From the sequence record OR427838.1: a stretch of DNA of 64,000 bases; one strand, 5' to 3'. The notes under the pieces are model-generated. The model worked only from the letters and a program-made list of their open reading frames with translations. It did not search any database and was not told where the DNA came from. This DNA comes from Escherichia phage fDHCT2. This document shows positions 1 to 56,601 of this stretch, piece by piece (positions within the stretch are counted from its first letter, which is position 1; each line of letters starts with the position of its first letter). The position numbers were made by a program, and so were the translations under genes.

Positions 1-415
1 CATCAAATACCTTAGATGGGTCTGTATAGAGGTTACGCATGATATGGGTATATGAACGAGAGTGAATGGTTTCACTAAATGTCCATGTTGCCACCCAAGT
101 ATCAAGGCTAGGGTCGGAAATCAAGGCTTGAAGAGCAGCAGAAGGAGCACGACCCTGGATACTATCCAGAAGTGATTGATACTTCAGGTTATTGGTAAAA
201 ATATTTTGTTGGAATTGCGGAAGCTTATTAAACTGGGCTGCATCCATCATCAAGTTGACTTCTTCTGGACGCCAGAAAAAACTCAACTGCTTCTCACAAA
301 GCTCTTCGAACACTTTATGACGTTGGATATCATATCGAGCAATACCCAAACCTGAACCAAAGAACATCGGTTCGGCTAAAACATCAACCGGAGTGGTATT
401 AAAAACTGTAGACAT
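1..415 (-). CDS. nrdB: Ribonucleotide reductase beta subunit, N-terminal part (gene runs off window start)
   Basis: Minus-strand translation from ATG at 415-413 reads [33 protein letters not shown]..., matching my memory of T4 NrdB N-terminus; sits downstream of nrdA as in T4. Confidence 0.85.
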
Positions 416-450
416 GTTATTCTCATTTGTTATGGGTTTAAATTATTTTA

Positions 451-1254
451 TCACATATTATGTATAAGCACTTCAGTCTGGAATGACACACCTTTTGATA
501 CTTTTTGATATCTAGTTTCAAAATATTCAATTTTGAAATTGTTAGAAAGGGCCCAATCTTTTAGAATGTTATTATCAATATCATCTGATAGATTATTAGT
601 GATAATAAATTTAGACTTTGATCGTTTAATTTTATCTAATAATTCTAATTCATCCTTTTCTTCCCACCCCGAATATTTAAATTTAGTAGAAAGATATGGT
701 GGATCGATAAATAAGTTCCTGTTTTCAAAATCTAAATCTCTGAATGATTTATTTGAAAAACTTAGCAGATGTTGTCGATTTTTAAAAGCGGCGAATTTAT
801 CCTGTTGCGATTTATTAAAAGAAGTTCTAGAGTATTTAGCCCTATCCGCAAAAGAAGCTATATACTTATCATCTTTAGAAAATTTTAGCATTGAGCTGAA
901 TGCAAATAAATGTAGAACATACAAATACAACCCGTTTTTGGTTTTATCGTATTCCTTTGCCAGAGAGTAAAACGGTTTAGGGTCCACATCATTTAAACCG
1001 AAATCATCAATAATTTGGACAACGTCATTCATTGTTGAAGTTTTCATCGCGTTGTACATATTGATGACATGATAATTAATATCATTACACTCAACTCGCC
1101 GCCCACAATTCATAGAAAATCCAAGCCCACCACAAAAGGCATCTAAAACTATGGAGTCATCAAACCCCGTCACGAATTTATTAATAAAATCCATATATTT
1201 GTATTTTGAACCCGGGTAGGTTATCGCTGAATAATATTTCATCATATTTGCCAT
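451..1254 (-). CDS. dam: Dam-like N6-adenine DNA methyltransferase
   Basis: 267 aa; FCGGLGF SAM-binding motif and DPPY catalytic motif; blocks resemble T4 Dam (LYLYVLH, IDPPYL, WEEKDELELL). Confidence 0.8.
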   Translation of the reverse strand: MANMMKYYSAITYPGSKYKYMDFINKFVTGFDDSIVLDAFCGGLGFSMNCGRRVECNDINYHVINMYNAMKTSTMNDVVQIIDDFGLNDVDPKPFYSLAKEYDKTKNGLYLYVLHLFAFSSMLKFSKDDKYIASFADRAKYSRTSFNKSQQDKFAAFKNRQHLLSFSNKSFRDLDFENRNLFIDPPYLSTKFKYSGWEEKDELELLDKIKRSKSKFIITNNLSDDIDNNILKDWALSNNFKIEYFETRYQKVSKGVSFQTEVLIHNM

Positions 1255-1297
1255 TTTGTTAGTGACTCATCCATGAGTCAATTATAATCAGATTTTA

Positions 1298-3553
1298 TTA
1301 AAGCTTACAAGCTGCACAATCGTCGGCTTTAGGAGTTTCGATTTCATAATCGTCAGTACCAGAGCCATCACGGGTATTATGATAATAAAGGTTCTTACCA
1401 CCAAAGTACCAGAAATATAACAGGTCATCAAGCATTACCGACATAGGAACTTTTCCTTTCTCATAATTCTGAGGGTCGTAATACGTATTCGCTGATGCTG
1501 ATTGGCAAACCCATTTCAACATAATTGCTACTTGGGTAAGATAAGGTTTATTACCTTTCTTAGCGAGGCTCCAAGCATAATCATAGAGGCCTTGGTTATG
1601 TTCTACATTAGGAACTACCTGACGGAAGTTACCTTCTTTAGATTCTTTAATACTTACCGGACCACGCGGAGGTTCGATACCGTTGGTAGAGTTGGAAACC
1701 TGGCTGCTTGACTCGCATGGCATAAGTGCTGATAATGTGCTATTACGGATGCCATGTTTAACCAAGTCTTCCCGCAACGACGACCAGTCACAAACATAGT
1801 TTGGGGCTGCGATTTGGTCAATCTTTTTACTGTACCAGTCGATAGGAAGCTCGCCTCGAGACCATTTAGTGTCTGAATAATACTCGCAAGGTCCTTTTTC
1901 TTCGGCCAGCTTGATTGATGCTCGGATAAGTCCATACTGTAATCTCTCAAACAGTTCATGAGTTAAATCGTTTGCGTCTTCATAAGAAGCAAAGTTGCTT
2001 GCCAGCCATGCTGCGTAGTTAGTAACACCGACACCCAGGTTACGACGTTTCTTAGCCTTCAAAGCTTCAGGAACAGGATAGCTTTGATAATCTAATAGGT
2101 TATCAAGTGCACGTACCTGTACTTCAGCGAGTTCGTTGATTTTGTCTTGGTCTTGCCAATCAAAGTTATCCAACACGAATGCAGACAGCGTACACAACCC
2201 GATTTCAGCGTCCGGACTATTCACATCGGTAGTTGGGATAGCAATTTCACAGCATAGGTTACTTTGGCGAATAGGAGCCTTTTCACGAATAAATGGTGTG
2301 AAGTTATTAGTGTTATCAACGAACTGAGGATAAATTCGTGCAGTGCCTGAACGTTCAGTCATGAACAATTCAAAGAGGTCACGTGCTTTAATACGTTTCT
2401 TACGAATACTAGAGTCTTTTTCAGCCGCTTCATACAATTCACGGAAACGTTCTTGGTCTTCAAAATAAGAATAATAAAGCTCACCACCCATTTCATGAGG
2501 ACTGAACAGCGTGATGTAATCATTTTTACCGAAACGTTCCATCATAAGGTCGTTCAACTGGATTCCGTAGTCCATATGGCGAATACGGTTCTCATCGACC
2601 CCTTTGTTGTTTTTCAGAACGAGCAGATTTTCAACTTCCAAATGCCAAATAGGATAATAAGCAGTAGCAGCGCCGCCACGGATTCCACCTTGTGAACATG
2701 ATTTAACAGCAGTCTGGAAATGTTTCCAGAATGGAATAACGCCTGTATGTTTGACTTCACCCATGCCAATACGAGAACCTTCAGCACGAATCATACCAAC
2801 GTTGATACCAATACCTGCACGTTTAGAAATGTATTCAATTATTGAGTTAGCAGTTTTGTTAATAGATTTCAGTGAGTCGCCTGCTTCAATAACCACACAA
2901 GAACTAAATTGACGGGTTGGTGTACGTGCCCCAGCCATAATAGGAGTTGGTAATGAAACCTGACGGGTACTTACAGCATCATAAAAACGAATAATATGGG
3001 CTAAACGGTTCCCTGGCTCGTCTTGGTGTAAGGCCATGCCAATACACATGATAGCGAACTGAGGGGTTTCGTAGATTTTACCGGTTGTTTTATCTTTAAC
3101 CAGATATTTCTCTTTAAGCTGCATCGCCCCAGCATAAGTCAATTCGAAATCGCGTTCATGCTTAATATGAGATTCTAAGAAAGTAATTTCTTCTGCAGAG
3201 TAACGAGATAACAACTCAGGGTCATATTTACCTTCGTTAACACAATAGGAAATATGGTCAATAAAACTACGCGGTTCAAACTGGCCATAAACTTCTTTAC
3301 GCAGGGCAAACATCAATTGCTTTGCAGCAACATACTGATAATCAGGTTCTTCAACCGAAATAAGGTTAGCTGCTACCTTAACAGTCAGATTCTGGATATC
3401 TTTGGTAGTCATACCATCACGAAGGTGGGTTTTGATTTCTTCGTATAATTCATATGGGTCGATTTGGGTTCCTTCACAGCCCCAAGTCAGAACTTTAATA
3501 ATTTTTTGTGCGTCAAAATCTTGGGATACACCACTACTCTTTTGTACTTGCAT
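1298..3553 (-). CDS. nrdA: Ribonucleotide reductase alpha subunit
   Basis: 751 aa (T4 NrdA about 754); class I RNR large-subunit blocks incl. C-terminal redox cysteine tail CAACKL. Confidence 0.95.
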   Translation of the reverse strand: MQVQKSSGVSQDFDAQKIIKVLTWGCEGTQIDPYELYEEIKTHLRDGMTTKDIQNLTVKVAANLISVEEPDYQYVAAKQLMFALRKEVYGQFEPRSFIDHISYCVNEGKYDPELLSRYSAEEITFLESHIKHERDFELTYAGAMQLKEKYLVKDKTTGKIYETPQFAIMCIGMALHQDEPGNRLAHIIRFYDAVSTRQVSLPTPIMAGARTPTRQFSSCVVIEAGDSLKSINKTANSIIEYISKRAGIGINVGMIRAEGSRIGMGEVKHTGVIPFWKHFQTAVKSCSQGGIRGGAATAYYPIWHLEVENLLVLKNNKGVDENRIRHMDYGIQLNDLMMERFGKNDYITLFSPHEMGGELYYSYFEDQERFRELYEAAEKDSSIRKKRIKARDLFELFMTERSGTARIYPQFVDNTNNFTPFIREKAPIRQSNLCCEIAIPTTDVNSPDAEIGLCTLSAFVLDNFDWQDQDKINELAEVQVRALDNLLDYQSYPVPEALKAKKRRNLGVGVTNYAAWLASNFASYEDANDLTHELFERLQYGLIRASIKLAEEKGPCEYYSDTKWSRGELPIDWYSKKIDQIAAPNYVCDWSSLREDLVKHGIRNSTLSALMPCESSSQVSNSTNGIEPPRGPVSIKESKEGNFRQVVPNVEHNQGLYDYAWSLAKKGNKPYLTQVAIMLKWVCQSASANTYYDPQNYEKGKVPMSVMLDDLLYFWYFGGKNLYYHNTRDGSGTDDYEIETPKADDCAACKL

Positions 3554-44448: not shown

Positions 44449-44970
44449 TTAATAACCTCGGTCTTGACGAGCAAAGTTCTCGGCATTTTTCAGATAATAC
44501 AGTTTAAAGATTTCTTCAGCAGTCAGACCAAGACCTTGGAACATATTCAGAACAAAGTGCAGAATATCAATCATTTCGAATTTAATTTCGAGCTGGTCTT
44601 CAGGAGAGAGTTCGTCAATACGACGATTACGGAATTCGGCATGTTGTGCCTTCCACGGCTTCCACACACTGGATGCGGCTTTCTCACCATTACTCATACC
44701 GCCAAGAGAAGTCAGAAGTTCACGGAATTCATCATCAATATAATCTTTCTGGTTGCGAAGCCAATCAACAACTTGACCTGCTGTAGCTAGTTCATCAGGA
44801 TTGGTGTTGAATTCTGATTTTTCAGTAGCCAAACGAACCTGTAATGATTTCTGCATATCAAGCATAACCTGCAGAGGGTCTTTATCTTCGTGAATCAGAG
44901 CATTAAAATAAGCTTCTTCAGCTTTATCAACACCTGCAATAAGTTGTGAGCATTCGTTAAAGTGTGCCAT
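44449..44970 (-). CDS. 56: dCTP pyrophosphatase gp56 (MazG-like)
   Basis: Start refined to ATG 44970; size and position as T4 gene 56. Confidence 0.7.
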   Translation of the reverse strand: MAHFNECSQLIAGVDKAEEAYFNALIHEDKDPLQVMLDMQKSLQVRLATEKSEFNTNPDELATAGQVVDWLRNQKDYIDDEFRELLTSLGGMSNGEKAASSVWKPWKAQHAEFRNRRIDELSPEDQLEIKFEMIDILHFVLNMFQGLGLTAEEIFKLYYLKNAENFARQDRGY

Positions 44971-45060
44971 TATATTTTTCCTTTTCAATTCATTAGTAAG
45001 TTAGATAATTATAAACTGTTAGATTAAAGCGAATAAATATTAATTTAACAGGAGGATAAC

Positions 45061-45261
45061 ATGGGTAGTATTTTTTACCAAATCTGGAAATTGTCCGAAA
45101 AGAAAGACAAGAAAATGATGTTAGGTTTTCTTGCGCTAGACGTGTTCCTTTGGAATCTTCTAGTAGTCCCTGTAGCCGCTAGCCAAGGGATAATTTTACC
45201 AGCGGTTACAATGGAACACGTATTAAGCATAATTGGATTCTTTAGCGGAGTTCCTGCCTAA
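45061..45261 (+). CDS. Small hydrophobic protein on opposite strand
   Basis: 66 aa; strong AGGAGG SD 7 nt upstream; lies in the 56-61 intergenic gap. Confidence 0.4.
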   Translation: MGSIFYQIWKLSEKKDKKMMLGFLALDVFLWNLLVVPVAASQGIILPAVTMEHVLSIIGFFSGVPA

Positions 45262-46286
45262 ATTTTGGAATATTTAGAAAGTCTCATTTTGGCCATTAGA
45301 CCTTGGGCTATATTAGCTTTCATATATGTCAGTACATCATTTATATCAGCTTTATCTTTCATAATCATATCATTTATATCTTTAGAAGGCCATGGAGCCT
45401 TGTCCCAGAATAGAACCCTTTCGCCAGCATCAACTAATCGTTGCATACGCTTAATTGTGTCAGGATGGCGGGGTTCATTGTCCATTACCCAGGCACGAGT
45501 TTCTTTACATGGAACTATAGCCAAATCTAACGACCCACCAGTAATTGCTATTGCATTCGGTACGAATAATGAATCGATAGGACCTTCCATTACCCAGACC
45601 AATTGACGTTCGTCGACTGTATCCATTCCATATATTTTTGTAGCTTGGTCATGAGCTTTTATTGTAATATATTTTTGTGGAGCATCTTTACGCAAGGCTC
45701 GACCCTGAAAACTTTCTATTTGTTTATCCTTATTGAAAATAGGAATAACCAAACGAGGCTCAGGCATTTCTTTAGAATAGGTCCCTGGATTCACAGAGTT
45801 CACCAATGCCGGCCATTCTTTAGTAAACCACAGCCGGTTCCATTTGTTTTCAGGAATGCAACGTAGTGTTACATATTTGATAATAGGATGGTCCTTCGGC
45901 ATTCTATCTAATCGTTCACAGAAATTAAGCTTTTCGATGACAGGCATCTTAGCTTTAATTTTTTCAGATATCTCCACCTTAGGTGCAGCTTGTCTCCCGA
46001 ACGATTGCTCTTTATGTTTCTCAAGAATATATTCTCGATATAAATCCGGCTCATATTCGTATAGATACTTCTTAATTCCTGCTGAATAGTCGCAGTTAAA
46101 ACAGTGCAGCATTACGGAGCCATCATTAGCCGGATAGGCCCAAAAACGAGCTTTGTTCTCATCTTTTTGGGAGTCGCCACATACACGACAACGACAGTTT
46201 AATTTAAAATCACTACCAGTTACTTGTCTGAATTTAGGTTGGTAATTCAAGGCACGTACAGCAAATTCTCTATCGACATATGACAT
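45258..46286 (-). CDS. 61: DNA primase gp61
   Basis: 342 aa as T4 gp61; N-terminal zinc finger CRCRVC...CFNC; TOPRIM-like core. Confidence 0.9.
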   Translation of the reverse strand: MSYVDREFAVRALNYQPKFRQVTGSDFKLNCRCRVCGDSQKDENKARFWAYPANDGSVMLHCFNCDYSAGIKKYLYEYEPDLYREYILEKHKEQSFGRQAAPKVEISEKIKAKMPVIEKLNFCERLDRMPKDHPIIKYVTLRCIPENKWNRLWFTKEWPALVNSVNPGTYSKEMPEPRLVIPIFNKDKQIESFQGRALRKDAPQKYITIKAHDQATKIYGMDTVDERQLVWVMEGPIDSLFVPNAIAITGGSLDLAIVPCKETRAWVMDNEPRHPDTIKRMQRLVDAGERVLFWDKAPWPSKDINDMIMKDKADINDVLTYMKANIAQGLMAKMRLSKYSKI

Positions 46287-51840: not shown

Positions 51841-51869
51841 ATTATATCACTTCACATTTACAGCGTTAA
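51841..51869 (-). promoter_or_regulatory. Candidate promoter for uvsX (extended -10 TGATATAAT)
   Basis: TTAACG-N17-TATAAT; downstream box resembles the early-element box (TTACCCTATC). Confidence 0.35.
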
Positions 51870-52759
51870 AGGACCACGTCCTCATAACTTGGCATTTCGT
51901 GCTCAGAATGGATATGGGCGCCGAAATAAATGAATTCAGCTAGACCAGGATGGAATACTAAACCTGGGTTCTCATGATAAATGATATGAGGTCTTGATTT
52001 CAGAATCTGATAATATTCAACCTTACTTGGTTTGAATTTAATAATCTCTACATCAGGACGATAGTCTTCACGCTTAAATGAATCATTCGGGTCGGTGATA
52101 TAAAGACGAGCACCTTCAGCCGCAGCTTGGTCTACAACTCTTTCGAATTGATAACACTTATCCGAAATACGGAATGGGTGGAAAATACCATCAATTTTAA
52201 TAGGCGCTAGACCTTCAGAGTAACGCTCAATTACTGCCGGATTAATTACCTTTTGGTCTACAAAAATCTTATCAGAGGACGCACCTCGTGACACCAGGAC
52301 GTCTTTCTGACATTGGTTCAAGACTGTAGTATAAATCGAACGTTCAACTGAAGACACGTCGGTATCAATAAACTCATCGATGTAATAACGAGGAACTTCA
52401 GGGTCCATTGTAATGTTAAAGTTGAATTGTACAGTCTGAGCACCATCATAACCAGTGATATCGGTTACTAATCCCGAGCAGTCATAGTATTCGATTAACG
52501 AATCAACGACAAACTCATTTTCGGACCAAAAATGTTTACGGGTCTCATAAGCATTTTCTTTATACCAAAGCGGCACGAAATTCAGTTCAGGAAATAATTC
52601 AATACATTCTTTGATATCGCTCGAATTTCTAGGATAAGCCAGATAATCACCTGGGCAAGCACGGTTTAAATGGAGTTGGAAATTACCGTCCTTAAGGACG
52701 GCATATTCACCTGTTTCGTAACTACGCATACTGAAAATAGGAACGATAAACAAACTCAT
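51866..52759 (-). CDS. Uncharacterised protein at the locus where T4 encodes beta-glucosyltransferase
   Basis: 297 aa; no motif I can assign; ATGA overlap with gene 42 homolog. Confidence 0.5.
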   Translation of the reverse strand: MSLFIVPIFSMRSYETGEYAVLKDGNFQLHLNRACPGDYLAYPRNSSDIKECIELFPELNFVPLWYKENAYETRKHFWSENEFVVDSLIEYYDCSGLVTDITGYDGAQTVQFNFNITMDPEVPRYYIDEFIDTDVSSVERSIYTTVLNQCQKDVLVSRGASSDKIFVDQKVINPAVIERYSEGLAPIKIDGIFHPFRISDKCYQFERVVDQAAAEGARLYITDPNDSFKREDYRPDVEIIKFKPSKVEYYQILKSRPHIIYHENPGLVFHPGLAEFIYFGAHIHSEHEMPSYEDVVL

Positions 52760-53454
52760 TTCAGGAATCCTCGAACGTAGTCAAAATCACGTTCAAATAC
52801 GTGTGCACTAACCATAGTATGGGAATACGTACCCAGACCAACACCACACTGTTCAGCAATAAAGGCCATCAGTTTACCCTGCAGATAGAAATCCAGCTGC
52901 ATAACGATAGCACAGTTCTGTGAACGCATATGAGTATGTGCATACAGACGTCCATCACGAATATAATATGTTACCGAATCGGTACATGGATATTCTAGGG
53001 ATTCGTCAGAATCAAGGAGGGCTTGGTCTTGTTCTTGGAGAATTTGGAACACAACTCGTCTCGAGTTAGGCTTTTCTTTAAGCTCTTTAAGTAGGGCTGG
53101 GAGTTGGGCCACAATTCGAGGTCCATAGAAAGTGTTGAAGTTTGCAGGCAATACGTCACTTTTCGGCTTATCAATGAACTTAGCAACATTAGGGTATTCC
53201 TTAAATGCTTCGGCAGCGTCAGTACCACCAGAAATCATAAATTTCCAAAAGGATTCGGCATATTCATAACTGATACGATTGATACGTGGGTCGGTGAATT
53301 TATAGGTGCTGGCATCCAGTACTTCTATAGAAGCAGAACCAATTTCATAACAACGTCCGATACGAGAATCAACTGCAAACTGTGGAGCTTCCAGGATTTC
53401 TTCGTTCATTTGTTTAAATGCATTTTCAAAACTAACAGCGGTAATGTGTTTCAT
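52756..53454 (-). CDS. 42: Thymidylate-synthase-fold pyrimidine hydroxymethylase/methylase, divergent gene 42 homolog
   Basis: 232 aa; blocks align to T4 dCMP hydroxymethylase: PNSRR, PCTDSVTYYIRDGRLY...MRSQN (catalytic Cys), SAHVFERDF. Confidence 0.7.
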   Translation of the reverse strand: MKHITAVSFENAFKQMNEEILEAPQFAVDSRIGRCYEIGSASIEVLDASTYKFTDPRINRISYEYAESFWKFMISGGTDAAEAFKEYPNVAKFIDKPKSDVLPANFNTFYGPRIVAQLPALLKELKEKPNSRRVVFQILQEQDQALLDSDESLEYPCTDSVTYYIRDGRLYAHTHMRSQNCAIVMQLDFYLQGKLMAFIAEQCGVGLGTYSHTMVSAHVFERDFDYVRGFLK

Positions 53455-53987
53455 TTATTCACCTTATTTTCAATATATTCGTTCAGACGTTTTAATTCTA
53501 CCATATCAACATTAAGCAAATTATTATGGCCGTCATGATTTAAGATTTTAAACACGTTTTCAAAACATGTTTCGTATTGCTGGATAGTTAGGTTGAACTC
53601 ATCTTTGGTTAATTTAATAAGGTCATCTTCGAAGTCTTCATCTAATGGATTACGGGTTAAAATAACCTCGATAACGTTAAATTCGGATTTAAACCCTTTC
53701 CAATCTTCCAGTTCTACATAAGGGTCCATTTCACCACGAAGGAATCCTGAGTAAACAATATTACTTGGATAACCACGGTCAAGGATGTAAACGAAATTAG
53801 GGTCTAAAAACTTATACAACGTCTCGACTAAAGCCTTATCATTATCAGTTCCTAATGAAATACACTTGCCATTAATCTTTTTAGGAAAATCAATAAGGCG
53901 GTATTTCTTATTGGATAACAGATTTTTAATTAAAGTGGACTTCCCGGAATTATCTGGGCCGTCTATAACAATGATTTTTGGATTCAT
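53451..53987 (-). CDS. P-loop nucleotide/nucleoside kinase (thymidylate-kinase-like)
   Basis: 178 aa; N-terminal IVIDGPDNSGKSTL Walker A. Confidence 0.55.
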   Translation of the reverse strand: MNPKIIVIDGPDNSGKSTLIKNLLSNKKYRLIDFPKKINGKCISLGTDNDKALVETLYKFLDPNFVYILDRGYPSNIVYSGFLRGEMDPYVELEDWKGFKSEFNVIEVILTRNPLDEDFEDDLIKLTKDEFNLTIQQYETCFENVFKILNHDGHNNLLNVDMVELKRLNEYIENKVNK

Positions 53988-54367
53988 GGATGATAGGCCT
54001 TATAACTATCAAGAGTTCCTTCACGAACCAATTCTTTAAAGTGGTCTGGACGGATTGCTCGGTCATCGATGATAAAAGTATAACTCGGCTTGTGTGTAAG
54101 CAAATTGTGATATTTCAATCCAATTTTTTCAAGGTTCTTAACCAATGCAGGAACTACTTCAACCAAGATTCGACCTGGGCCACATGAAGTCATGCCACGG
54201 GCAGTGAATAATGTAATCTCGTACCCTTCATCATAAAGCTTATTAATCATGGACACCATTTCGGTGTCCGGTTTAAAGTTCTCATAATCACGGTCATGGT
54301 TCCAAATCGTGATTGTGTTATCGATATCAAAACATAAATGTGGTTTATTTTCTACTCGATGCGACAT
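53984..54367 (-). CDS. HAD-superfamily phosphatase
   Basis: HAD motif I FDIDNT near N-terminus; start refined to ATG 54367 (TAATG overlap); alternative start 54382. Confidence 0.55.
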   Translation of the reverse strand: MSHRVENKPHLCFDIDNTITIWNHDRDYENFKPDTEMVSMINKLYDEGYEITLFTARGMTSCGPGRILVEVVPALVKNLEKIGLKYHNLLTHKPSYTFIIDDRAIRPDHFKELVREGTLDSYKAYHP

Positions 54368-56040
54368 TAAATTTTCTTCCATTGTTTGTGGAGTTCAGTA
54401 GAACCTGTAGGTTTATATTTTACACCAGTTTCCTGGTCAAGCAAAACCCACTTATCAGGACAACGAGTAATAATTTGAGCCGTGATAGGGTCACGAACTT
54501 CATCGACAAATTCACCAGTAATAAGCTTACGCTTACGAGGATGCCGCTTCAGCAGCACACTCAGTTGGTACAAACCGTTATAATAAGCACCCAGAGCTTT
54601 CAGAGGGTTATTCTTAAAGTAACCTGCCAGCGCCATCCAAATAACAGCAATCCAGAGCTTGTGCTTAAATGTGCACATAGGAATATCGTCTAAAGGCATA
54701 ACCTTTTCAATATCAACGAATACACGAGTTCCATTACGAGTTAATCCACCCCATAGAGGGTCTGAGTTAAATTTGTCATAGCCATCGATAGAATAAAGCA
54801 CCTTAGCTTCATCATAAATCGCAGGGCCTTTAGAACTATTACCGAAATAACCACGTGGGTCGATGATTTTAATATCACCTTCGTCCGACAGCATAATATT
54901 ACTGTAGTGCGGGTCACCATGAATAAGTTGGTACGGTTCTTTATGTTCAGACAGAATTTCTAATGCATGGCGGAGAAGTTTTTCAGGGTCGCCTACTTTG
55001 AAATCGTTGACATGGGTAATGCCCTGTGGAGCAAAGCCTTCAATCAATCCGGCAATAGAAGCATTACGAATAAGGACCTTGTCCAATACTTCTTTCTTAA
55101 CATCGGAATACCATTGTTCATCGGACGGATTATCAATAGTTCCACCAAATGAACGTAATGCACTAATGACCTTATAAACCATGAGGACTTTAGTTTCTTT
55201 GGACATAAACCGGTAGGCATCTGCCATGGTCCGACCAAAGATACGTTCCATTTTAATGAATTCGCCTGGAGAAAAGTCTACAATGCTAGGAACGAATTCA
55301 GAATCAATAGAATTATACCAATTGATTTCTTTAGATTGAATTTCTTTACCTAAATCGTTAGTTGGTACTTTAATAGCCAGATTCTCAGTGAACTCTAATT
55401 TATTAAATTCACGGTTAATTTCAGAATCTTCATGGGCCTTAGCCAGTTTCAATTTGTCACCGACATCAACCACAAAGTCCAGCTTACGTTCAGTCAAATG
55501 GACCATCGAATCCAGGTTGTCTGCAAGGTCTTCGCCATAATTAGAACGGTCGAAACCTGTCCAATTAGCCACCTGATACAAACCAACCACACCACCGCCA
55601 GTACCAATTTCACGCAAGTACGGTTCTTCAAATGTAAAACGACAGTCGGTCCCATAGGTATAACAGTAGTCGTTATCCCACTCAACTTTATGACCTTCAG
55701 GAATAATATCACACCAGTTAAACAAGACATTATGCCCAATGATATCTTCAGCAATGCAATCGATAGCATGAGCTGAACCATTAGCAACATCAACGTTACG
55801 AATAGTGAATTTAGGCTTATCACCAGTAATCATGTTAATGGATTTGATATAGCCTTTAACGAGGTCGTTAAATTTGCTGTGAATAACCAGAATAATTTCA
55901 TCTGATTGGTTACTATACAAATCATACAAATGCTTTAATACCGTATGTTGTTTGTAGTTAACCAATACCTTCGGGATTTCGTTAGTAATTGGATACAACC
56001 GTGAGCCAAGACCCGCGCCTAAAATAACAACCTTTTTCAT
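54367..56040 (-). CDS. Bifunctional sugar-1-phosphate nucleotidyltransferase (N-terminal) / sugar kinase (C-terminal)
   Basis: Start refined to ATG 56040 (GAGGAA SD); N-terminus ILGAGLGSRLYPITNEIPKVLV; C-terminal HGDPHYSNIML...IKIIDPRG Brenner-type kinase motif. Confidence 0.6.
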   Translation of the reverse strand: MKKVVILGAGLGSRLYPITNEIPKVLVNYKQHTVLKHLYDLYSNQSDEIILVIHSKFNDLVKGYIKSINMITGDKPKFTIRNVDVANGSAHAIDCIAEDIIGHNVLFNWCDIIPEGHKVEWDNDYCYTYGTDCRFTFEEPYLREIGTGGGVVGLYQVANWTGFDRSNYGEDLADNLDSMVHLTERKLDFVVDVGDKLKLAKAHEDSEINREFNKLEFTENLAIKVPTNDLGKEIQSKEINWYNSIDSEFVPSIVDFSPGEFIKMERIFGRTMADAYRFMSKETKVLMVYKVISALRSFGGTIDNPSDEQWYSDVKKEVLDKVLIRNASIAGLIEGFAPQGITHVNDFKVGDPEKLLRHALEILSEHKEPYQLIHGDPHYSNIMLSDEGDIKIIDPRGYFGNSSKGPAIYDEAKVLYSIDGYDKFNSDPLWGGLTRNGTRVFVDIEKVMPLDDIPMCTFKHKLWIAVIWMALAGYFKNNPLKALGAYYNGLYQLSVLLKRHPRKRKLITGEFVDEVRDPITAQIITRCPDKWVLLDQETGVKYKPTGSTELHKQWKKI

Positions 56041-56068
56041 TATCTGTTCCTCAAGTGAATGTAGGTAC

Positions 56069-56100
56069 ATTATACACTATTTTTAATAAATTGGTATTGC
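56069..56100 (-). promoter_or_regulatory. Candidate extended -10 promoter upstream of nucleotidyltransferase-kinase gene
   Basis: TGTATAAT on minus strand; weak -35. Confidence 0.3.
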
Positions 56101-56601
56101 TTAAATCTTATCTTTACCGATTTCAATACACTGTTCTATTGCCGCCGGTACTTTGGTCTTGAGCTTATCGATTTGTTTCTTATAATCACGAGCTTTACCG
56201 AAGCTCTCGGTTTCGAGCATTTCGTAATAACGAGCCTCGTGGATGGAAATCTGTAGATTGATATGGTTTACGCACATCGCATACAGTTTCTGCTTTTTGT
56301 ACAAATCATCTTGACGCTTCATTTCTGCCTGGTGTTTGGCTAGTACCGCTTCACGCTTAGACTCTTGTTCACGTTGGAATTCGATTTCCCTTTGAGCATA
56401 TTTTGCACAGTTATTACCGCATTGATTATTAGCTCGGGTATACACAAGTCCGGAACCAGCACGGAATTTCATTTCGCCATCGAATTGTTTCTGTTCAGCT
56501 GCGATACGAGCTTTACCAACTTCATCAGCCGAAACTGCATCGCCATATTGGACCGCGCAACCTGATAGGAGCATACTCATTGCGATAATTAACTTTTTCA
56601 T
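56101..56601 (-). CDS. Putative lipoprotein
   Basis: 166 aa; signal peptide with lipobox LLSGC; GAGGA SD. Confidence 0.55.
   Translation of the reverse strand: MKKLIIAMSMLLSGCAVQYGDAVSADEVGKARIAAEQKQFDGEMKFRAGSGLVYTRANNQCGNNCAKYAQREIEFQREQESKREAVLAKHQAEMKRQDDLYKKQKLYAMCVNHINLQISIHEARYYEMLETESFGKARDYKKQIDKLKTKVPAAIEQCIEIGKDKI

Follow-up and report, generated by a model that had tools for sequence, protein, structure and literature searches.

Why a Dam-like adenine methyltransferase gene lies between nrdA and nrdB in Escherichia phage fDHCT2 (OR427838.1), and how it came to be there, is the question raised by this locus. It was addressed in a stretch of 64,000 nucleotides of this T4-like phage of Dhakavirus type, called here the window, and in related phages. 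The original prediction took the gene for a relocated or independently acquired cargo gene; our searches of the literature on the gene, on phages fDHCT2 and CF-SP2 and on Dhakavirus methyltransferases found nothing specific. Considered as a whole, the best explanation, in which we have fairly good confidence, is that of a functional orphan Dam-class methyltransferase forming a cassette, an old resident of the junction, most likely with a GATC-like target and a protective role.

Identity of the Open Reading Frame

The open reading frame at 451..1254 (minus strand, stop codon at 451-453) encodes 267 amino acids from the first ATG and was assigned to the orphan D12/Dam-class N6-adenine DNA methyltransferases by its reading frame, Pfam family PF02086 and the T4 Dam structures. 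The protein covers positions 1-251 of the 253 of the PF02086 profile (D12-class N6-adenine DNA methyltransferase) with an E-value of 9.8e-20 and 71.8 bits, exceeding the curated threshold of 22 bits, and it also matched phrog_56 "DNA methyltransferase" (E 1.7e-28) and NCBIfam Dam-family models. Among solved structures the nearest was T4 Dam (M.EcoT4Dam; PDB 1Q0S, 1YFJ, and 1YFL), likewise of the D12 alpha-type, with 259 residues, which is alignable from end to end (E 5e-29, 31% identity, aa 9-245). E. coli Dam (PDB 2G1P and 4RTJ) has in common with it the Pfam family, the DPPY motif, and the aromatic and basic residues of the hairpin, but it is very distant, with an E-value of 0.009 against the PDB sequence and 22.8 bits in the EcoDam equivalog NF008152, below the cut-off of 441. 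The score in the TIGR00571 "dam" subfamily was also below its cut-off (67.6 versus 114.85 bits). The prediction of a Dam-like adenine methyltransferase related to T4 Dam, in the intergenic position between nrdA and nrdB, was thus borne out: the FCGGLGF and DPPY motifs were both found, the upstream frame is nrdA, and the downstream frame, with its start at 415, is nrdB.

The gene is intact and ordinary in kind, and its annotation as a methyltransferase is pre-existing; the identical UniRef entry is an adenine-specific DNA methyltransferase of Escherichia phage fDHCT2. The dN/dS ratio was 0.07-0.19 in all informative pairs, which indicates functional constraint, and the antisense frame at 533..970 (plus strand) was considered spurious because it overlaps this constrained coding frame. 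An AlphaFold2 model built from a 5-sequence alignment (the window protein and four close relatives) had a mean pLDDT of 41.6, too poor for use, and the methyltransferase fold is inferred by homology to T4 Dam only. No cognate restriction endonuclease gene is an immediate neighbour, since nrdA and nrdB occupy those places in the window and likewise in the 11 related loci; the enzyme is therefore an orphan methyltransferase of a T4-like phage, as is T4 Dam, and a Type II restriction-modification system was ruled out. A homing endonuclease cassette of the mobE/hef type was also discarded, the sole Pfam match being PF02086, with no HNH or GIY-YIG nuclease. From these similarities the frame would encode a functional, stand-alone, AdoMet-dependent N6-adenine DNA methyltransferase of the Dam/D12 alpha-type.

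Organization of the nrdA-nrdB Junction

The upstream neighbour is nrdA, the large subunit of ribonucleotide reductase (1298..3553), with 96% nucleotide identity to the annotated nrdA of phage JS98. The downstream neighbour is the 5′ part of nrdB, the small subunit (1..415, Pfam PF00268), which exits the window and is 94% identical to JS98 nrdB. All three, the methyltransferase gene included, are encoded on the minus strand. By blastn break points and alignment, a segment of 822 bp (433..1254, minus strand), composed of the open reading frame and an 18-nt 3′ trailer, is missing from JS98 and other Dhakaviruses. Homology to JS98, whose nrdA-nrdB gap is only 52 bp, stops at 1255 and restarts at 432, and a common flanking repeat of about 7 bp leaves the boundary uncertain by about 7 nt. 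The ribosome-binding and start region of nrdB, CATAACAAATGAGAATAACATG (413..434, minus strand), defined by alignment with JS98 and relatives, provides the downstream one of the two direct-repeat copies (TAAC-AAATGAG) between which the insertion lies. The JS98 junction reads ...CACTAAC followed by AAATGAGAATAACATG, and in the relatives CACTAAC-AAATGAG(G/A)A.TAA.ATG stands ahead of the methyltransferase gene.

Between nrdA and the methyltransferase there is a spacer of 43 bp (1255..1297, minus strand), in which 41/41 aligned bases match the JS98 nrdA-nrdB spacer; at the other junction 18/18 bases match. The spacer holds the palindrome TGACTCATGGATGAGTCA (1263..1280) and a TATAAT (1281..1286). 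The promoter-like arrangement TTGTAA-18-TATAAT (1310..1281) is a consensus match only (10/12 positions), of a quality also expected in shuffled sequence of this region. Alignment with the relatives places the consensus start of the family at the ATG at 1242 (Met5). The Shine-Dalgarno-like GAGGAG/GAGA found upstream in relatives is replaced in fDHCT2, where the frame gains an in-frame extension of 4 codons, and because of this replacement the expression of the methyltransferase may be weak in this phage.

In this reading the gene is a promoter-less, single-gene cassette of 822 bp, placed exactly between the conserved promoter-like and palindromic element that follows nrdA and the ribosome-binding site of nrdB. 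The cassette is co-oriented with nrdA and nrdB and comes with a ribosome-binding sequence of nrdB type. Taking into account this orientation, the position between the nrdA-side element and the nrdB ribosome-binding site, and the additional copy of that site, co-transcription with nrdB as a pre-replicative gene seems most likely. The mobE and hef cassettes (PMC2988022) resemble the methyltransferase in their intergenic slot, in being promoter-less single-gene inserts co-oriented with the nrd genes, and in their presence/absence polymorphism among related phages. In contrast to them, the product here is a methyltransferase that lacks HNH and GIY-YIG domains and has no known means of self-spread; moreover, the overlap of mobE with the nrdA stop codon has no counterpart in the methyltransferase gene, which is downstream of the conserved 43-bp spacer.

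Recognition Region and Target Specificity

Motif I (AdoMet binding, FCGGLGF, aa 40-46) was located at 1117..1137 and motif IV (catalytic, DPPY, aa 184-187) at 694..705, both on the minus strand, by translation and alignment of the family. The FCGGLG core of the former (F40-G45, FxGxG type) is invariant across the family alignment, its T4 Dam counterpart being FCGGLS. Motif IV is also intact and invariant, and D184-Y187 pairs with D171-Y174 of T4 Dam and D181-Y184 of E. coli Dam. The predicted DNA-recognition beta-hairpin region (aa 119-143; 826..900, minus strand), placed by alignment to these two enzymes, lies between both motifs, and this order (motif I, recognition region, DPPY) is that of the alpha-type. 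By analogy with these enzymes, the target adenine would be flipped into the DPPY pocket while the site would be read by the hairpin.

In E. coli Dam the GATC-reading residues are Y119, N120, L122, R124, and P134, with R124 as the key guanine-reading arginine (PMC4417163); by alignment their T4 equivalents are F111, S112, M114, R116, and P126. Several of these DNA-contact positions are common to T4 Dam and the methyltransferase, in which F119, S120, and M122 align with T4 F111, S112, and M114, while K124 aligns with T4 R116 and E. coli R124, and S134 with P126 and P134. Within the family residue 122 is M or L and residue 124 is K or R, with a nearby Arg also present; Lys is found at position 124 in the fDHCT2 allele and Arg in most members, and position 134 is Ser or Ala versus Pro in T4 Dam and E. 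coli Dam. After the hairpin, still within the aa 119-143 region, there is an insertion of about 6 residues (KYSRTS), family-specific and invariant.

As the residues aligned with the GATC contacts are either retained or replaced conservatively, the most likely target would be GATC or a close variant of it, and this is the reading towards which we lean. That the enzyme is an active DNA adenine methyltransferase with a non-GATC target, leaving a different protective mark, is a real possibility that we nevertheless do not favour. The features that speak for it are the Lys of the fDHCT2 allele at the guanine-reading position, the Ser or Ala in place of Pro, and the invariant insertion beside the hairpin, in a long-branch family that scores under the "dam" subfamily threshold. 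To these is added the co-occurrence with a canonical Dam in phage vB_Eco_BGP. However, most family members keep Arg at position 124, and the contacts made by the intercalating aromatic, the Ser, and the Met/Leu are conserved. The majority of the characterised D12/Dam-class members target GATC, which also counts against another target.

The window contains 12 GATC sites in 64 kb, an observed/expected ratio of 0.05, one of them formed by the GAT-CCA codons of DPPY. With a genome nearly devoid of GATC, a GATC enzyme would have very few substrates, and this too agrees with a different target. We also considered whether avoidance of GATC was relaxed in the carrier of the methyltransferase. Against JS98 alone there were 10 versus 3 sites, but per homologous 50 kb the window had 7 (plus 2 in the gene) versus 1, 4, 7, and 7 in Dhakaviruses that lack the methyltransferase; the idea was rejected, the window being no outlier beside AnYang (7), PSD9 (7), and dhabil (4). 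On the basis of the Arg to Lys and Pro to Ser changes, the conserved post-hairpin insertion, and the purging of GATC to 5% of expectation, it may be proposed tentatively that the whole nrdA-nrdB family recognises a sequence other than GATC, which we consider rather doubtful.

Distribution and Origin of the Family

The Dam-like family to which the gene belongs is small and isolated; members were found in T4-like phages only, and all those whose context was checked lie at nrdA-nrdB. Members were present in 8 of about 764 T4-like phage records (about 1%), from the genera Dhakavirus, Tequatrovirus, Gelderlandvirus, and Marfavirus; in these 8 records and 3 metagenome or assembly contigs the order nrdA-methyltransferase-nrdB was found in 11/11 examined. 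The insert is missing from about 48 close Dhakavirus-like records with flank identity of at least 90%, and the gene is thus accessory and of low frequency in the T4-like phage group. Among 1.84 billion representatives the family forms a single isolated 50%-identity cluster, with the next relatives about 30-35% identical, and it comprises only 4 clusters at 90% identity in a 5.8-billion-sequence database. In IMG/VR no relatives were found, whether the query was the single protein or the family alignment. In the phage collection the nearest protein outside the family was the "Dam" of Alcaligenes phage Afa-NA1 (XUE01680.1), 36-41% identical over its full length, which has FCGGLGF and the extended post-hairpin segment in common with the family; it differs in that its host genome is a non-T4-like phage of 78 kb and its gene adjoins topoisomerase genes rather than nrd.

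Considering this patchy occurrence, the gene could be a recently captured mobile cargo, brought by homing-endonuclease traffic at nrdA-nrdB and not native there. The junction is a documented endonuclease landing site, occupied by mobE in T4 (PMC2988022) and, according to the same source, by hef in other T-even phages. Endonuclease genes also split or flank nrdA and nrdB in other records (nrdA of 236Ecol005PP, nrdB of BGP, and between td and nrdA in L012). A capture would also agree with the short direct repeat on both sides of the insertion and with the transfer of the cassette alone in BGP. In addition, 2 of the 12 GATC sites of the window are inside the gene (Poisson P about 0.006-0.007); however, one of the two is a synonymous change unique to fDHCT2, so that the excess is no clean foreign signature.

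Other observations make a recent capture unlikely. The window and most carriers have no endonuclease gene accompanying the methyltransferase, the flanks in the window are of Dhakavirus type up to both junctions, with the 41/41 and 18/18 spacer bases equal to those of JS98, and no donor outside the T4-like phages was found among the 1.84 billion representatives. Furthermore, synonymous divergence among the three deep alleles is in line with that of nrdA: dS of the methyltransferase versus nrdA was 1.28 versus 1.18 between the window and T4_ev240, 2.1 versus 1.5-1.9 between the window and a Klebsiella-type contig, and 1.87 versus 2.2 between T4_ev240 and the Klebsiella type, figures that are rough as a measure of age, dS values above 1 being near saturation. 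As the dS of the methyltransferase tracks that of nrdA in three lineages, a long-standing residence is indicated.

Exchange of the cassette, or of a longer tract, is visible in BGP and CF-SP2. BGP and an ENA contig have flanks of T4 type (97-100% to T4) around a methyltransferase 83-97% like that of the window, with a dS of 0.50 for the methyltransferase versus 1.13 for nrdA. The identity of CF-SP2 to the window jumps from 59-79% to 89-99% about 590 nt into nrdA and remains high through nrdB. The gene would accordingly be seen as an old resident of the nrdA-nrdB junction, kept at low frequency and often lost; the JS98 sequence would be restored if the segment were deleted precisely between the two repeats of the ribosome-binding site, and occasional movement from phage to phage could proceed through homologous recombination in the conserved flanks. 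From the original prediction of an independently acquired cargo, the accessory character stands, given the 52-bp gap of JS98 and the records lacking the insert, but a one-off capture fits less well with the dS of nrdA. The opposite situation, a dam native to nrdA-nrdB in this phage group, applies in part, as the same junction is occupied in the 8 records of four genera and the 3 contigs.

Relation to T4 dam

In T4 (NC_000866) the nrdA-nrdB gap contains the HNH homing endonuclease gene mobE and nrdB.1, while dam is between genes 56 and 61, in agreement with the prediction, which placed a homing-endonuclease gene at the junction and dam elsewhere. With T4 gp56, Dam, and gp61 as tblastn queries on the window, the canonical dam slot was found at 44971..45260 (minus strand), a gap of 290 bp between the homologues of gene 56 (44452..44970) and gene 61 (45261..46286), about 44 kb from the methyltransferase. 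The search with T4 Dam detected no Dam-like coding sequence in this gap, and because the slot is empty the nrdA-nrdB gene is the only Dam-like gene in the window.

It could be thought that the gene is a T4 dam orthologue which left its place between genes 56 and 61 for the nrdA-nrdB gap and diverged afterwards, given that T4 Dam is the top-scoring characterised relative, that the slot is empty in T4_ev240 as well as in the window, and that carriers other than BGP have no second Dam-like gene by single-match count. We consider such a relocation, which had been part of the prediction, very unlikely. The identity to T4 Dam is 31%, versus 45-58% for T4-type Dams of other T4-like genera (46-58% for those of Aeromonas, Cronobacter, Klebsiella, and Krischvirus), and BGP holds both the canonical dam and the nrdA-nrdB methyltransferase. 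In a neighbour-joining tree the family was monophyletic in 40/40 bootstraps and had T4 Dam as sister in only 11/40. The canonical dam is commonly missing anyway: T4-type Dam at 90% identity or more occurs in 182 records only, and the slot is also empty in JS98, which has no methyltransferase. A substitution of the canonical dam by the methyltransferase was likewise rejected, since the absence of dam from JS98 and most T4-like records leaves the apparent mutual exclusion not significant. Neither by position nor by similarity range (about 45-100%) is this gene the canonical T-even dam orthologue, from which it differs also in the Lys for Arg116 of the fDHCT2 allele, the Ser for Pro126, and the post-hairpin insertion.

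Also very unlikely is a decaying or silent gene in fDHCT2, suggested by the replaced ribosome-binding patch before the consensus start and the 4-codon extension, as the reading frame is intact with every motif present, dN/dS is 0.07 versus the closest relatives, and the differences from the CF-SP2 methyltransferase are mostly synonymous (dN 0.021, dS 0.283).

Biological Significance

Phages commonly carry orphan Dam-like methyltransferases, and as the fDHCT2 gene was already annotated as one, its presence is no surprise to specialists. Its most likely role would be to methylate phage DNA and so shield it from host nucleases whose targets are unmethylated sites. At a junction known for homing endonucleases, a DNA methyltransferase is a third kind of occupant besides mobE and hef, and the family offers a clear case of an accessory gene that is tied to one position and persists, at low frequency, in several T4-like genera. 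If the family does recognise a sequence other than GATC, it would represent a second, previously undescribed adenine-methylation mark in a minority of T4-like phages and would explain the coexistence with the canonical Dam in vB_Eco_BGP. For phage-therapy genomics, the gene distinguishes a minority of the isolates of Dhakavirus, Tequatrovirus, Gelderlandvirus, and Marfavirus; their DNA may bear extra methylation, a mark that could alter host range against restriction systems.

Results and Discussion

The methyltransferase ORF and its neighbours

The phage is a T4-like phage of the Dhakavirus type (JS98-like); its nrdA and nrdB are approximately 94-96% identical to those of JS98 and relatives, and an internal 24-kb stretch has about 92% identity to phage AnYang. 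The ORF at 451..1254 (minus strand, 267 uninterrupted codons) is located between nrdA (1298..3553, minus) and nrdB (minus, Pfam PF00268; it starts at 415 and is cut by the window edge). It covered the whole profile of Pfam PF02086, the D12-class N6-adenine DNA methyltransferases (E 9.8e-20, 71.8 bits, cut-off 22), and also matched phrog_56 "DNA methyltransferase"; with the NCBIfam Dam subfamily model it reached 67.6, under the model cut-off of 114.85. The motifs FCGGLGF and DPPY are found at amino acids 40-46 and 184-187. The ORF, the Pfam match, both motifs and the neighbours confirm the original prediction of a Dam-like methyltransferase between nrdA and nrdB. Among solved structures T4 Dam came nearest (E 5e-29, with 31% identity across amino acids 9-245), and E. 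coli Dam (EcoDam) was scarcely detectable (E 0.009). Judging from the pairwise dN/dS of 0.07-0.19 in all informative pairs, and from motifs that are invariant across the family, this is a constrained protein-coding gene. The product is predicted to be an orphan DNA adenine methyltransferase of the Dam family and of an ordinary kind. The gene is already annotated publicly: in UniRef the exact protein, assigned to Escherichia phage fDHCT2, bears the name "site-specific DNA-methyltransferase (adenine-specific)"; no paper on it was found in the literature.

T4 had been described as carrying a homing-endonuclease gene at this junction and dam elsewhere, and its reference record agrees: mobE (HNH homing endonuclease) and nrdB.1 occupy the nrdA-nrdB gap, and dam lies between genes 56 and 61. 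In the window the homologues of these two genes are separated by a 290 bp gap, and tblastn of T4 Dam against the 64 kb gave the nrdA-nrdB ORF as the sole match. No other Dam-like gene is present in the 64 kb, and the canonical dam slot is empty, as it also is in JS98. The same slot in Shigella phage PSD9, another Dhakavirus, contains three unannotated ORFs of 123, 161 and 500 aa (locus L021, 43269-45612), and in AnYang a SegF-type homing endonuclease adjoins gene 56; the 56-61 interval is thus a further site in the genus at which cargo varies.

Anatomy of the insertion

In JS98, which lacks the insert, the nrdA-nrdB gap is 52 bp. Homology to JS98 stops at 1255 and restarts at 432, with about 7 bp common to both ends, so the extra DNA amounts to 822 bp, that is, the ORF plus 18 nt. 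In the alignment the JS98 junction reads GAGTCACTAAC joined to AAATGAGAATAACATG, the final ATG being the nrdB start. The carriers have CACTAAC-AAATGAG(G/A)A.TAA.ATG 5' of the methyltransferase gene and CATAA(C/T)AAATGAGAATAA(C/T)ATG 5' of nrdB, which indicates that a duplicated nrdB ribosome-binding region brackets the cassette. A deletion between the repeats would restore the exact JS98 sequence, and therefore the junction alone cannot separate gain from loss.

The spacer between nrdA and the methyltransferase gene (1255..1297, 43 bp) was identical to JS98 at all 41 aligned bases. Within it an 18-bp palindrome, TGACTCATGGATGAGTCA (1263..1280; consensus TGACTCA(Y)GGA(Y)GAGTCA), follows the nrdA stop codon and occurs once in the window. 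Outside the window (L001 3976-3993, L002 1934-1951, L003 4971-4988, L006 3976-3993, L007 3971-3988, L014 3136-3153) the palindrome is kept behind nrdA in JS98 and six carrier loci, with carriers from Tequatrovirus and Gelderlandvirus, and is absent from T4 and the Klebsiella-type loci. It directly follows TATAAT, with TTGTAA 18 bp upstream (a 10/12 match); promoter-like matches in the region were not more numerous than in shuffles, and the pair is a consensus match only. We infer that this promoter-like element would be the nrdB promoter of these phages, now also serving the methyltransferase gene. Since the palindrome folded only modestly as RNA (-9 kcal/mol, z -1.4), a protein-binding site at the nrdB promoter may be a better reading of it than a hairpin.

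At the start of the methyltransferase gene the initiation patch (1242..1262) is AAAATGGCAAATATGATG, unlike all relatives, which have AAATGAGGAGTAATATG or AAATGAGAAATAATATG. The Shine-Dalgarno-like, purine-rich GAGGAG/GAGA of the relatives is replaced, and the patch adds in-frame upstream ATGs, of which one, four codons ahead of the family-consensus start (the ATG at 1242), opens the ORF. The gene may be expressed at a lower level in this phage, or from another start codon.

Mobile endonuclease genes have a hot spot in the nrd neighbourhood of the relatives. A "putative mobile endonuclease" splits nrdA in 236Ecol005PP (L003 3274-3984), a homing endonuclease ORF interrupts nrdB in vB_Eco_BGP (BGP; L006 5660-6469), a Logan contig has a GIY-YIG gene in opposite orientation in its td-nrdA gap (L012 1929-2657), and td of CF-SP2 contains an intron-associated endonuclease (L001 127-864). 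None of these four is present in the window.

Predicted specificity and GATC avoidance

[quoted passage not shown] In our alignment Y119, N120, L122, R124 and P134 correspond to F111, S112, M114, R116 and P126 of T4 Dam and to F119, S120, M122, K124 and S134 of the window protein. Position 124 is Arg in the Tequatrovirus-type and Klebsiella-type alleles and Lys in the window, CF-SP2 and BGP, and an invariant insertion of about 6 residues, KYSRTS, follows the hairpin. The balance tips slightly towards a target that is GATC or closely resembles it, and a different motif is the less likely alternative.

The window has 12 GATC sites (620, 702, 6219, 11161, 26436, 34242, 42674, 47203, 48248, 50615, 62607 and 62741) against approximately 205-228 expected (O/E 0.05-0.06). 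GATC is by far the most depleted tetranucleotide, followed by CTAG at 0.70 (Markov expectation). Per homologous 50 kb there were 7 sites in the window, plus 2 within the methyltransferase gene, and 1, 4, 7 and 7 in JS98, dhabil, AnYang and PSD9, respectively, all without the gene. O/E was 0.006-0.013 in JS98, 0.02-0.04 in dhabil, AnYang and PSD9, 0.07 in the CF-SP2 locus and near 0.3 in Tequatrovirus loci. As depletion in the Dhakaviruses without the methyltransferase is equal or stronger, its carriage brings no visible relaxation of GATC avoidance, a result that favours no target over another. Two of the 12 sites lie inside the 804-bp gene (Poisson P about 0.006-0.007), numbers that are too low to support a conclusion; one of the two comes from a synonymous GAC-to-GAT change, unique to this phage, in the codons for DPPY. 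GATC counter-selection is known in enterobacteriophages and has been partly ascribed to MutH acting on under-methylated phage DNA (McClelland 1984; Deschavanne and Radman 1991; both cited from PMC5014478). It is speculation that a phage Dam-type enzyme serves as insurance for the few remaining sites. We found no account in the literature of avoidance this strong in hmC-type T4-like phages.

GATATC is 2.4-fold over-represented in the window. The region 51866..56601, especially 54367..56070, is about 96% identical to JS98 genes that carry annotations of similarity to RB69 orf047c, orf048c, orf045c, orf051c and orf052c. The ORF at 52756..53454 is a gene 42-type hydroxymethylase homologue (Thymidylat_synt match), and nearby is a 567-aa protein whose NTP-transferase and APH-like kinase domains suggest a sugar-nucleotide pathway for unusual hydroxymethylcytosine glycosylation. 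According to a preprint, mosigviruses encode hmC arabinosylation (10.1101/2020.01.19.911818).

Distribution and origin of the family

Among 764 records of the phage collection matching the nrdA-nrdB region, only 8 encode the protein with at least 60% identity: Salmonella phage CF-SP2 (Gelderlandvirus, 94.8%), BGP (Tequatrovirus, 92.9%), EP02SG, T4_ev240, 236Ecol005PP, ECO07P2 and vB_Eco_NR1 (77-78%; T4_ev240 and 236Ecol005PP are Tequatrovirus) and Klebsiella phage PhiKpNIH-6 (Marfavirus, 70.6%). In all five records whose neighbourhood was retrieved the gene comes straight after nrdA, and in four nrdB follows it, the PhiKpNIH-6 record stopping within the gene. In the other three carriers the same order is indicated by features under a contiguous nrdA-to-nrdB match, and it recurs in three metagenome or assembly contigs with family members. 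Only CF-SP2 has the insert among 49 records with flanks at least 90% identical. When 1.84 billion representatives were searched exhaustively without a profile, the family formed a single 50%-identity cluster, with next relatives at about 30-35%; a word-indexed search of 5.8 billion sequences gave four 90%-identity clusters, and two IMG/VR scans no members.

Rough as these comparisons are, with dS above 1 near saturation, dS for the methyltransferase and nrdA was 1.28 and 1.18 between the window and T4_ev240, 2.1 and 1.5-1.9 between the window and a Klebsiella-type contig, 1.87 and 2.2 between T4_ev240 and that contig, 0.50 and 1.13 between the window and BGP, and 0.80 and 0.19 between BGP and T4_ev240. 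Divergence of the three deep alleles is about equal to that of their flanks, which are genus-typical right to the junctions; long co-residence with repeated loss, or a lasting presence/absence polymorphism, would fit both observations. Two exceptions to this co-divergence show exchange. BGP and an ENA contig have flanks 97-100% T4-like and a methyltransferase 83-97% like that of the window, and in CF-SP2 identity to the window is 59-79% before a point about 590 nt into nrdA and 89-99% after it, remaining high across the methyltransferase gene and nrdB, which marks a recombination tract from a Dhakavirus-like donor.

In neighbour-joining trees the family was monophyletic in 40 of 40 bootstraps, and T4 Dam fell within its sister clade in only 11. 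The gene had been proposed as relocated or independently acquired cargo. Relocation of T4 dam is rejected by the 31% identity to T4 Dam, against 46-58% for the Dams of other T4-like genera, and by BGP, which carries both the canonical dam and the nrdA-nrdB methyltransferase; a one-off capture does not agree with a family found only at this junction. What stands is an accessory gene that is not the canonical dam, belonging, as far as the data show, to a small family present only at the nrdA-nrdB junction in a minority of T4-like phages.
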